DNA of 62,707 bases, counting the filler, from Basidiobolus ranarum (Eukaryota): NCBI GenBank assembly GCA_040143965.1. It is 3 parts of 3 records of this genome, joined end to end, with 100 filler letters (N's around TTAATTAATTAA, not from the genome) between each part and the next. Parts side by side here need not be neighbours in the genome. Positions count along the whole stretch, not along the records: positions 20,965 to 41,806 come from JASJQH010000220.1; positions 41,907 to 62,707 come from JASJQH010000221.1; 1 more part is not named here. One strand, written 5' to 3'. Every line of letters starts with the position of its first letter. The first letter of the stretch is position 1. Position numbers: made by a program. This document shows positions 39,001 through 42,000 of this stretch, piece by piece.

Positions 39001-42000
39001 TGTGGATGATTCTGGCGAAAATCCTGAGAGAAAGGCACAATCTGATCATGTGAGTATGGATATTCAAGTCATTACGCGTCCAAATTGATGTAATTTATGG
39101 ATTCGACATTTTCTATATAAGACTGACGGTTCTGCTCTAGCATCCAACAAATCTCGCCTTCGTACCATAACATGCAAATCTTTGTTAAGACTCTCACTGG
39201 TAAAACCATTACTTTGGAGGTAGAGTCCTCCGATACCATTGATAACGTAAAGCAGAAGATTCAGGATAAAGAAGGAATCCCTCCCGATCAACAACGTCTT
39301 ATTTTCGCTGGCAAGCAACTCGAAGATGGCCGTACTCTAAGCGACTACAACATTCAAAAAGAATCCACACTACATCTTGTCTTGAGATTGCGTGGTGGTA
39401 CTCCAGGAAAGAAAATCCCCAAGTGCACCGTCCCTGGTTGTAATGATCGTGTTGTTCGTATTATTGGCGATTGTCGGTACTGCAGTCAAAAGTTCTGTGG
39501 AAAGCATCGTCTCCCTGAAACTCATGCTTGTCCCAATCTTACAACTTGCAAGCAAAGTTCATTTGAACGTTATGCAGATCGACTACTTAGTGAAAAATGT
39601 GTTGCTAGCAAGGTTTAAGCTCCCATTATCCCAAAAGTAACTTATTGTCCGCATGTTGATGTTAGTTAATATTGTATTATTAATTGTAATTTTTCTACGT
39701 ATTCCAATAAATCCAAATTCATGTACACTCTACATTTTGCTCTGCTCTGCTCTACTTTTATTACCTGTCCAATCTGACTCCTAAACATCTCTACATGACG
39801 CAAGTCTTAATAGTCCATGTACGTAATAGAACCCCTTCTTTGGTTCAATATATAACAACAAGGCTGCAGGATTATTGAAACTCACATAATACAGCCCGCA
39901 TTTGAGTGATGACGCCTACCCCTTGGCCCCTTCAATGTCGATAGCACAATGAATTCGTGACCCAATATCCCGTTGCTTGCTTCAACAGTGAATACCATTT
40001 GAACATCAGTTGAACATCGTGTTTCATATTGATTGATTAATATGCTACCCAAGTCCTCTTATGAAATTGTGATCACTAACCGGTTTTTTCTGATAAAGAC
40101 AAAGGGGGCCAAGGGGTAACAGAAAAAGGGAGGAATAAGAAAGGTGCCGATTAGGAAATTGAATCTTGGGGAGTTTAAGGATGTGCCGGGACCATAGATT
40201 TCCAATTCTGGATATTAGTCATTTATAAGAAAGTGAAGGTTGCTACCAGAATTAGGGAATCATTTGTAATCATTCATTCCAGTCCTCTCGAGACCCGAAG
40301 CTCAAAGCCGAAAACTCGAGACCATCCCTTTTCTAACTTCCAAGGCCAATCTCAATAGAAAACGAGCACAATAGAATGCAACACAAGAAGATTCAAAAAT
40401 GCGAAATCGTCGGCTGTTACGACCGTGCCATACGAATTATTGGTGTATGTAGATATTGCGAACAAAGATTCTGTGGATTGCATAGACTACCTGAATCACA
40501 CGCCTGTTCCAATTTAACCATCTGTAAGCAGTATTCCTTCGCTCGTTACGCTGATCGTCTATTAAGCGAGAAGTGTGTTGCCAGTAAAGTTTAACGAATC
40601 GCAGTATCTGGTATTTTGCCTTCAGTCTTGACTTAGCACTTGCTAGCTAGAAATACATCCCTTAATAGAGATTATCTAAACTTTACTCCTATGGAACTAT
40701 TTCCTTCCGATGTAGATAAATCCAAATAAACATAGAGATCACTTGCCACTTGTGTGTTGTATCTAGTAATTTCTGTGAATACTGATTTCCATAGCATGTG
40801 GGTACGATTAAAGGCGGGAGGGTTGAACCTTAAGGGGAAGGGGTGAACCTAAGGTATTCTCACGGGGCATGAATCCACATGTTTGGAGGGATTGATTCGT
40901 TGAATGTCTCTTGATTGTTCAAATCAGTGAGTCAGGAATCAACCAGTTGATGTTTCTAATGGAAATATTGACAATCATTAAGAGCCAAGATATTCGAAGC
41001 CAAGACACGAACCATTGTTCTTGTGGATACATGGTTTACTGTATGCACTATATATATATATACATAGTTAAATAAAATAGTGAATTTCATGGGCTTTGAA
41101 GCAACAGATTCATTGGAGTATGGTGAACTTTGTCACTAATAAGCCAGTACTAGTATCTCTATCCTTGCTGATCTATAATAGAGTCACCAATACTGTATGC
41201 AAAGAAATATTCGAAATTTATCATATCTACTGCACCAGAGGAAGCTTGGTTCTTCCATCCTTAGCATACAGTCATGTTTATCAGATTCTGATCAGTGTGG
41301 ACAACAATACTATCTGTACTCAACTAATCAATTCACTCTATTGTAAATGTGTTAACATACATAAGAACTGGATAAAGAAAAACCCACAGAGACGCAATTC
41401 TCTGCCTGAACCCTCTAATCATACTTTATTCTACGAACAGGTAATCGCAAAATACTACATTCAAGGAAGGATTGTCACCGAATGACTCGCTATAGAGAGT
41501 ATTCAGAAGAAGCTTAAATTTACATTGTTAACTAACCTAAGATCAAGTTAACCCAAAAGATCGAATCCTAATAACTGATTGTAAGACAATATCCACTACA
41601 CGCTCGAATATGTAAAGATCAATCACATATTGTACATTTGATACCTCAAGTCCAGTAAGGAAGGATTGTTGCTACAGAAGTAGTTATTTTTGACTTGTAT
41701 TCAGTTCCAGACATTACCAGTTTATAATTTTGCCGTGTTAAAGCTGGATAGAACTCAAATTGTATATTTTACATCACTTCATGGTTTGAAAACCGACGAG
41801 AAGAATNNNNNNNNNNNNNNNNNNNNNNNNNNNNNNNNNNNNNNNNNNNNTTAATTAATTAANNNNNNNNNNNNNNNNNNNNNNNNNNNNNNNNNNNNNN
41901 NNNNNNCTGGCAAAACGTCAAGTCCCTCTACATCAAGAGCTCCATGGGCAAGCCCCAACGTCTCTATTAATTTATTTTACGAGCAATACATCCATATGAT

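Follow-up and report, generated by a model that had tools for sequence, protein, structure and literature searches.

The textbook sources of ubiquitin are polyubiquitin and the fusions of ubiquitin to eL40 and eS31. A locus of the fungus Basidiobolus ranarum (GenBank assembly GCA_040143965.1) raises the question of whether ubiquitin is also made together with a small zinc-finger protein, and of how copies of that protein with and without ubiquitin came to lie side by side. The stretch of DNA that we analyzed, referred to below as the window, comprises 62,707 nucleotides (nt) in three joined parts. At positions 39172 to 39618, an open reading frame (ORF) fuses one ubiquitin to an AN1 zinc finger (a Ub-AN1 fusion), and four ubiquitin-less (“bare”) AN1 paralogues lie no more than 5 kb away. 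A first-pass annotation of the window had proposed that this gene represents an extra class of ubiquitin precursor. Taken as a whole, we consider it likely that the gene encodes a precursor cleaved into ubiquitin and an AN1 peptide, that its tail is of the Tmc1 type, that the fusion is the ancestral state, and that the bare copies arose by ubiquitin loss. The fusion gene has the following features.

39114..39120, plus strand: TATA-like box TATATAA, 58 nt before the ATG of the fusion gene (consensus match only, from a scan of 400 bp upstream)
39172..39618, plus strand: fusion ORF (copy c4), an uninterrupted 148-codon frame encoding 148 amino acids (aa)
39172..39399, plus strand: canonical ubiquitin moiety, residues 1-76, ending LRLRGG (Pfam PF00240, sequence comparison, AlphaFold2 [AF2] fold)
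39394..39405, plus strand: predicted processing site, G75-G76 / T77-P78 (direct reading, AF2, family comparison)
39400..39615, plus strand: 72-aa basic tail, by sequence a Tmc1/YOR052C-type AN1 protein (8.1 kDa, pI 9.3, 8 Cys)
39424..39531, plus strand: AN1 zinc finger proper, C85 to C120, with six Cys and two His ligands
39538..39594, plus strand: conserved C-terminal helix, residues 123-141 (AF2, block predicted local distance difference test [pLDDT] 82-85)
39616..39618, plus strand: stop codon TAA
39706..39711, plus strand: AATAAA polyadenylation-like signal, 88 nt past the stop (consensus match only)

Neither an N nor a break interrupts the frame, whose first half is ubiquitin itself. PF00240 matches residues 3-74 with an E value of 6.8e-33 (112.7 bits against a cut-off of 25.4), and 73 of the 76 residues are identical to those of a human-type polyubiquitin-C unit, the differences being at positions 19 (S/P), 24 (D/E), and 28 (Q/A). 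Compared with the second unit of Rhizopus delemar P0049, 75 of 76 are identical, and the sole difference is at position 28 (Q versus S); this S28 unit is presumably the yeast ubiquitin sequence. The top-scoring single-unit PDB group for the ubiquitin part bears yeast-style names (eS31, eL40B). By direct reading, K6, K11, K27, K29, K33, K48, and K63 are all kept and LRLRGG is intact, and in the AF2 model residues 1-76 take the ubiquitin fold (block pLDDT 86-91). The claim that a true ubiquitin rather than a diverged ubiquitin-like domain (UBL) is in frame with the AN1 finger is thus borne out. Polyubiquitin has at least two head-to-tail units and a short cap; the window gene has a single unit and a conserved 72-aa tail, and a tblastn search of the window found no second ubiquitin-coding stretch (next-best match, E 4.2).

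The tail starts with TPGKK directly after G76, with zero linker. Pfam places zf-AN1 (PF01428) at residues 85-124 (E 1.1e-14, 54.6 bits against a cut-off of 27.9), and a regular-expression search finds the pattern C-X4-C-X10-C-X2-C-X4-C-X2-H-X5-H-X-C complete at residues 85-120, giving the Cys6His2 set for two predicted zinc ions. These ligands are invariant or nearly so across the tail-family alignment. The finger is followed by the C-terminal helix, which is kept from Basidiobolus to cryptophytes and more weakly in yeast, and the tail then terminates in ...EKCVASKV; no solved counterpart of the helix is present among the PDB matches, which end near profile position 59 of 76. Frame, Pfam, and alignments together confirm the first-pass description of the ORF, its canonical ubiquitin with LRLRGG, its linker-free 72-aa AN1 tail, and its four bare neighbors.

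We searched for relatives of the junction by comparing residues 60-148 with 5.8 billion proteins, which returned 1229 matches at an E value of at most 1e-3 among the 8000 candidates scored. All 120 of the matches listed contain both PF00240 and PF01428, and by our own classification the ubiquitin is canonical in 117 of them. The closest among the matches listed are three 148-aa proteins of the same layout, two from B. meristosporus and one from B. ranarum, with 74-79% identity; the window protein itself has no entry in that database. P0003 and the B. ranarum protein P0002, both 148 aa, have the same junction layout as the window gene, and the N-terminal part of B. meristosporus P0001 (181 aa) is the counterpart of the window's junction. 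We classified 317 tail-bearing rows (312 fetched proteins and the window's five) and found canonical ubiquitin directly upstream of the tail in 129, a diverged ubiquitin-like part in 31, and none detected in 157; these counts are not frequencies, because the “none” class is inflated by fragments and by decayed ubiquitin-like parts that phmmer missed (e.g., P0143, P0171), and because the 50%-identity library of the tail-only search described below probably merges canonical fusions into ubiquitin clusters. A count by other criteria over 150 listed matches of the tail-only search gave 111, 18, 13, and 8.

The 129 canonical fusions, the window's own included, span zoopagomycetes, Mucorales, chytrids, a blastoclad, a glomeromycete, an ichthyosporean, and cryptophytes. 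Two ubiquitin units are present in 87 of them, one in 41, and three in 1, and in the two-unit forms that we compared, the units are identical or differ at two positions. Members in the Mucorales come from many genera and usually have two units; further member genera are Thamnocephalis, Syncephalis, Spizellomyces, Globomyces, Paraphysoderma, Funneliformis, and Calcarisporiella, and the non-fungal members are the ichthyosporean Sphaeroforma and the cryptophytes Guillardia and Rhodomonas. Like the window protein, the other Ub(n)-zf-AN1 proteins consist of one or more canonical units ending RLRGG and an AN1 tail of 65-75 aa ending ...EKCVA.KV; Mucorales “polyubiquitin” proteins (220-250 aa) and cryptophyte proteins are 53-66% identical to window residues 60-148. 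They differ in having two units and/or linkers of up to ~60 aa, whereas the window protein has one unit and no linker, and the window fusion is part of a tandem array to which four bare copies also belong. These comparisons mark the Ub-AN1 architecture as a conserved class, neither accidental nor a one-off.

Public annotation of these genes is uneven. Many fungal genomes annotate the gene as “polyubiquitin” or “ubiquitin-domain-containing protein”, and many of the Ub-Ub-AN1 proteins of Mucorales carry the label “polyubiquitin”. P0002 is labeled “60S ribosomal protein L40A”, very likely a mislabel driven by its ubiquitin part. The gene model of P0001 looks chimeric, with ubiquitin and the first 19 tail residues followed by the next bare AN1 gene with its own Met (…MHSKKIQKC…). 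It mirrors the order of copies c4 and c5 in the window, and its sequence suggests a model in which the first part of the fusion gene is probably spliced to the bare copy that follows. P0195 and P0272-P0277 form one 90%-identity cluster in which 71-aa bare AN1 proteins (starting MPVKKKTC) are mixed with longer forms that have the same Met right after RLRGG; Met follows GG in 15 of the 129 canonical fusions. Such a start codon, retained at the junction, could ease loss or gain of the ubiquitin part.

The fusion has been catalogued before (PMC6332867, PMC8122580). The proposal of an extra precursor class therefore holds in substance, given 129 canonical fusions, but not as something new. Sibbald et al. 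(2019) list Guillardia theta fusions to a partner described as “zinc ring finger like”, with one unit at 145 aa and with two at 199 aa (PMC6332867, Table 2), lengths that match our P0091 and P0058, as well as a 273-aa two-unit fusion to a zinc ring finger in Bigelowiella natans with RNA-seq support (PMC6332867). Martin-Villanueva et al. (2021) name zf-AN1 (PF01428) and zf-RRN7 as the commonest domains among unusual architectures with fused ubiquitin, at ~1.2%, and report the zinc-finger ubiquitin fusion from algae and diverse fungi (PMC8122580); a 2024 review repeats the list of ubiquitin fusions (PMC11354881). The name AN1 itself goes back to Xenopus animal-pole mRNAs (PMC5035049), and the title of Linnen et al. 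(1993), cited there, calls the products of localized Xenopus mRNAs “ubiquitin-like fusion proteins”. The first-pass annotation had allowed for prior characterization elsewhere, and this is true of tabulation, which covers Guillardia, Bigelowiella, and fungi; a functional study of a Ub-AN1 fusion was not found in the literature, a search outside whose scope lay the supplements of PMC8122580 and PMC6332867, which may list fungal genes. The class is thus already catalogued and widespread in early-diverging fungi and some protists, with the window gene an additional member, and it is functionally unstudied. What the present analysis adds is the link between the tail and Tmc1/YOR052C, the family-wide retention of the cleavage site, and the polarity of the loss and the age of the bare copies.

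Is the fusion cut? Linear fusions of ubiquitin to a second protein are cleaved by cellular deubiquitinases (DUBs) unless the residue after ubiquitin is Pro, as in the ubiquitin-fusion technique. At the window junction, direct reading gives Thr as the P1' residue after LRLRGG. Pro follows GG in none of the 129 canonical fusions; the residue at this position is A (32), G (32), M (15), S (13), N (13), V (11), T (9), I (2), D (1), or C (1). The AF2 model (mean pLDDT 81, predicted template modeling score [pTM] 0.46) has residues 75-78 as its sole segment below pLDDT 50; they lie between the ubiquitin fold and the finger-plus-helix, and the junction is modeled as flexible or disordered. Relatives with a decayed ubiquitin-like part also retain [R/L/K]GG directly before the tail (P0131, P0143, P0171, P0194, P0214, P0222), with junctions such as ...CRLLGG-ESKK, ...IPLKGG-AAKC, and ...LPLRGG-MPAKK, and a GG is found at most 12 aa from the first Cys in 11 of the 31 UBL rows and in 8 further rows of the “none” class.

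Sequence and model together make a DUB cut after G76 of the window protein likely, which would give one ubiquitin and one AN1 peptide. Such maturation is expected by analogy with Ub-eL40 (UBA52/RPL40) and Ub-eS31 (RPS27A/RPS31), which like the window protein have one canonical ubiquitin, no linker, and a small basic partner with zinc binding, predicted in the case of the window tail. The GG kept in decayed forms suggests that the tail would need release rather than ubiquitin identity, and FUBI-eS30 is the known analogue (PMC11354881). A Ub-AN1 paralogue at a second locus of B. meristosporus, P0006 (148 aa), has a diverged ubiquitin (MQIFIRALTGK…) in which RLRGG is kept and followed by Phe. Under the N-degron rule, a bulky hydrophobic N-terminal residue makes a protein short-lived; if cut, the tail of P0006 would begin with such a residue and would be expected to be short-lived.

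Alternatively, the protein could stay whole. Its ubiquitin would then be a built-in UBL by which AN1 docks on the proteasome or on Cdc48, much like the UBL of Cuz1/ZFAND1 or ZFAND4. In ZFAND4, a diverged, uncleaved UBL lies far from the AN1 finger, whereas the window ubiquitin abuts the tail directly. Uncleaved proteins that combine AN1 with a UBL do exist, such as Cuz1 with its C-terminal UBL and LDFLP motif, and a title in the reference list of the same paper calls the founding An1 proteins “ubiquitin-like fusion proteins” (PMC5035049). The 9 of 31 diverged relatives whose ubiquitin-like part lacks GG also fit this possibility. However, although ZFAND4/Xenopus An1 and Cuz1/ZFAND1 share with the window protein a ubiquitin-fold domain plus AN1, their UBLs are diverged and uncleaved; the window moiety is canonical, N-terminal, and followed after LRLRGG by Thr, with Pro absent from this position throughout the canonical fusions. 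Moreover, the near-identical units of the two-unit forms are as expected for supply of the ubiquitin pool, and even the diverged forms often retain GG. We therefore regard an uncleaved protein as improbable and return to a cleaved precursor, whose tail we consider next.

We used the 72-aa tail alone to search the whole library, which gave 723 cluster representatives at an E value of at most 1e-3, 176 of them at most 1e-10. Zygosaccharomyces rouxii P0246 was matched over query residues 3-72 (E 2.4e-12), and its relatives carry the labels “related to AN1-type zinc finger protein YOR052C” and “YOR052C-like”. Saccharomyces cerevisiae P0296 and P0298 (149-150 aa, “hypothetical protein”) belong to this family; BLASTP aligns P0298 with tail residues 9-72, covering finger and extension, at 44% identity over 64 aa (E 2e-19). 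We take YOR052C to be Tmc1. This assignment fits the pairs of yeast AN1 proteins named as Cuz1 and Tmc1 (PMC5035049) and as Cuz1 and YOR052C (PMC11799193). The LDFLP motif, which sets the Cuz1/AIRAP subfamily apart from Tmc1 (PMC5035049), is absent from the window tail between the first two Cys dyads. It is likewise absent from Tmc1/YOR052C, which shares with the tail a single C-terminal AN1 finger and the same helix-forming extension; in yeast Tmc1-type proteins, ~40-100 N-terminal residues of low complexity (by eye) replace ubiquitin, and the proteins end ...APKIQI. On this alignment evidence, the tail is a member of the Tmc1/YOR052C family.

Among solved AN1 domains, the second finger of ZFAND1 comes closest (1wfe; E 1e-8 with the family profile) and also has a C-X4-C first dyad; AN1 domains in the PDB match at 1e-4 to 1e-8, and ribosomal zinc ribbons (L37Ae) at 0.065-0.21, which is chance level. 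In the ESM Atlas, which gives leads only, the best scores for the tail are 0.85, and the nearest clusters are 72-aa AN1 proteins, commonest in Ascomycota. At rank 3 there, likewise as a lead only, stand 81-aa hypothetical proteins of Nucleocytoviricota (0.85); giant viruses might carry a small AN1 protein like the tail.

The identity of the tail bears on two further alternatives. It might do no more than cap the C terminus of a mono-ubiquitin gene, much as extra residues close polyubiquitin genes, and be dispensable and without a function of its own, as the “polyubiquitin” label of many relatives and the two units before the tail in 87 of the 129 canonical fusions would allow. This is very unlikely: conservation of the tail, with the helix ending ...EKCVA.KV, spans fungi and cryptophytes; the tail is 44% identical to a protein of the yeast YOR052C family; and it occurs as free-standing genes under purifying selection in the same locus and also in other fungi (e.g., Verticillium P0236). 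Slightly less likely still is that the tail is a third ribosome-associated zinc protein beside eL40 and eS31, with the fusion serving ribosome biogenesis. The tail does resemble these proteins in size, charge, and predicted zinc binding (72 aa, pI 9.3, 8 Cys), and B. ranarum P0002 is named after one of them, most likely from its ubiquitin part alone. However, no ribosomal Pfam family matches the tail, ribosomal PDB chains match at 0.065 or weaker, and the yeast homologue is described as proteasome associated rather than ribosomal (PMC10616229). The window tail is thus not ribosomal, unlike the partners in Ub-eL40 and Ub-eS31, and, as a further difference from these, many lineages have lost the AN1 fusion or retain it in decayed form. 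The least credible alternative, an assembly or annotation artefact joining a ubiquitin gene to an AN1 gene, which the first-pass annotation had raised as misassembly with a polyubiquitin gene, has no support that we found in the window (the only related artefact is the P0001 model) and is contradicted by the same junction in two other Basidiobolus assemblies and in >100 proteins from unrelated projects and by the continuous frame.

How, then, do the bare neighbors relate to a cleaved Ub-AN1 precursor? The four copies resemble the “pre-processed” tails that the first-pass annotation saw in them, being ~72-75 aa long and containing AN1 only.

35231..35458, plus strand: bare paralogue c1, 75 aa, 96% identical to B. 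meristosporus P0122
36747..36965, plus strand: bare paralogue c2, ~72 aa from an internal Met run, with an open frame back to 36609 (118 aa)
37843..38061, minus strand: bare paralogue c3, 72 aa from the internal Met of MSGKPATRC, with an open frame to 38181 (112 aa)
40376..40594, plus strand: bare paralogue c5, 72 aa, grouping with the C-terminal part of B. meristosporus P0001

The B. meristosporus counterpart of c2, P0121 (93% identity), begins with MIKKAAKC at the position of the internal Met and is ~72 aa long; the 72-aa start of c3 is placed by alignment with the other copies and is to that extent inferred. Tree support is 100/99 for c5 with the C-terminal part of P0001 and 100/95 for c3 with c1 and P0122. 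The B. meristosporus counterparts of c1, c2, and c5 each lie on a contig whose listed length is 160,813 bp, and no separate counterpart of c3 is present among the matches. DNA likeness among the five copies is confined to the AN1 coding part (69-77% identity), and tblastn of the window revealed no ubiquitin remnant upstream of the bare copies, the next-best match being that at E 4.2. A match of 8 residues (LIGECRYC) on the minus strand, at 37425-37448, has stops on either side in every frame, and we treated it as chance. Over 69 common codons, the proportion of nonsynonymous differences (pN) among the five copies is 0.10-0.22 and that of synonymous differences (pS) is 0.73-0.97, which is saturated; these values show that each of the five is old and evolves under purifying selection.

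We built a careful tree of 33 rows over 72 columns and a quick tree of 131 rows. The rows were picked from the 317 and comprise the window's five and taxon-named matches, to which the quick tree adds representatives P0123-P0200 shorter than 400 aa. In the 33-row tree, the 12 Basidiobolus rows form one clade (92/76), and the proteins among which it is nested, from Zoopagomycota, Mucoromycota, and chytrids, are ubiquitin-fused. Over the two trees, the end branch of the fused window copy is the shortest (0.005 to 0.06), and the three bare lineages have stems of 0.16-0.34. The quick tree shows the same picture. Because the bare copies are nested among fused forms, the trees point to loss of ubiquitin and not to gain; this polarity rests on the fused outgroups, the root within the Basidiobolus clade not being inferred by the method. 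Parsimony applied to these sequences favors an ancestral fusion and at least one ubiquitin loss, after which the copies were duplicated in tandem before B. meristosporus split off. The suggestion that the locus captures gain or loss of the ubiquitin moiety survives as regards loss; however, given the saturated synonymous sites and the B. meristosporus counterparts of three of the four bare copies, the loss is old and has not been caught in progress.

Putting these observations together, we propose that one transcript would encode canonical ubiquitin head-to-tail with a 72-aa AN1 protein of the Tmc1/YOR052C family. DUBs, which process Ub-eL40, Ub-eS31, and polyubiquitin in this way, would cut after G76 while the protein is being made or shortly thereafter, and the products would be one free ubiquitin and one AN1 peptide beginning TPGKK. 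Ubiquitin would then serve as an N-terminal carrier that can be removed from a small, basic, Cys-rich zinc protein, and the output of AN1 peptide would be tied to ubiquitin supply, the ratio of both being fixed by the fusion. The released tail may act at the 26S proteasome in proteotoxic stress, as judged from the yeast homologue only. Tmc1 is arsenite inducible, is required for resistance to As(III) and Sb(III) (PMC10616229, PMC11799193), and is reported to associate with the 19S cap (PMC10616229); this stress regulation and proteasome binding are known for yeast Tmc1 only. The fusion would be the ancestral state of the locus, and the four bare neighbors would descend from a copy that lost ubiquitin and was then duplicated in tandem; selection would have retained them as versions of this peptide that start directly.

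Several observations weigh against this proposal. GG is missing in 9 of the 31 UBL rows, so cleavage would not be universal across the family. How YOR052C aids resistance is described as uncharacterized (PMC11799193), which makes any function assigned to the tail second-hand. In the 33-row tree, the branch that sets all seven bare rows to one side has weak support (66/78, 72 columns), so that one loss or several may have occurred. A motif scan of the 400 bp upstream of the fusion gene found no heat shock element (HSE), proteasome-associated control element (PACE), or stress response element (STRE), and stress induction thus gets no support from the promoter. The PACE/Rpn4 system may not hold outside yeasts. 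No HSE triplet or PACE is present in any of the five upstream regions, and no 8-mer is common to at least three of the five. A short, imperfect (ATGGAT)n run lies at 38983-39008 on the plus strand, ~170 nt before the start codon of the fusion.

The remainder of the window holds other genes. Two long ORFs (1195 and 1066 aa) at 21020-28126 on the plus strand encode consecutive modules of a nonribosomal peptide synthetase (NRPS), with domains of the AMP-binding, PP-binding, and Condensation types; an intron or a frame break probably divides a single gene here. The same stretch of 20 residues occurs at 22363-22422 and at 27031-27090. Six further neighbors are ordinary eukaryotic genes with no evident tie to the AN1 array.

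29382-30326, minus strand: NmrA-like protein
32828-33568, minus strand: KH-domain protein
42438-43544, minus strand: class I/II aminotransferase
49820-50677, minus strand: DHHC palmitoyltransferase
54909-56537, minus strand: pentatricopeptide repeat (PPR) protein
59717-60349, minus strand: ribosomal protein eL13

A broader scenario can be put forward only tentatively, and we hold it to be less probable than its negation. Here, Ub(n)-AN1 would be a third ancient, maintained precursor class that predates the split between opisthokonts and cryptophytes, with a tail ancestral to Tmc1 and a ubiquitin:AN1 ratio fixed by the fusion. Some lineages, Dikarya yeasts among them, would have switched to transcriptional coupling, and the Basidiobolus array would keep one coupled and four uncoupled copies. 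Whether yeast ZFAND genes are co-regulated with ubiquitin availability is described as open in a 2025 review (PMC11799193).

Set beside the textbook sources of ubiquitin, the Ub-AN1 fusions are a further precursor class with a conserved AN1 tail, one that has so far been tabulated and never studied. The link to Tmc1 gives a hypothesis for this class, namely, that ubiquitin and a proteasome stress factor may come from one polypeptide, and it makes yeast tmc1 mutants an easy experimental entry. The B. ranarum locus in turn offers a natural comparison between fused and unfused versions of what would be the same peptide.

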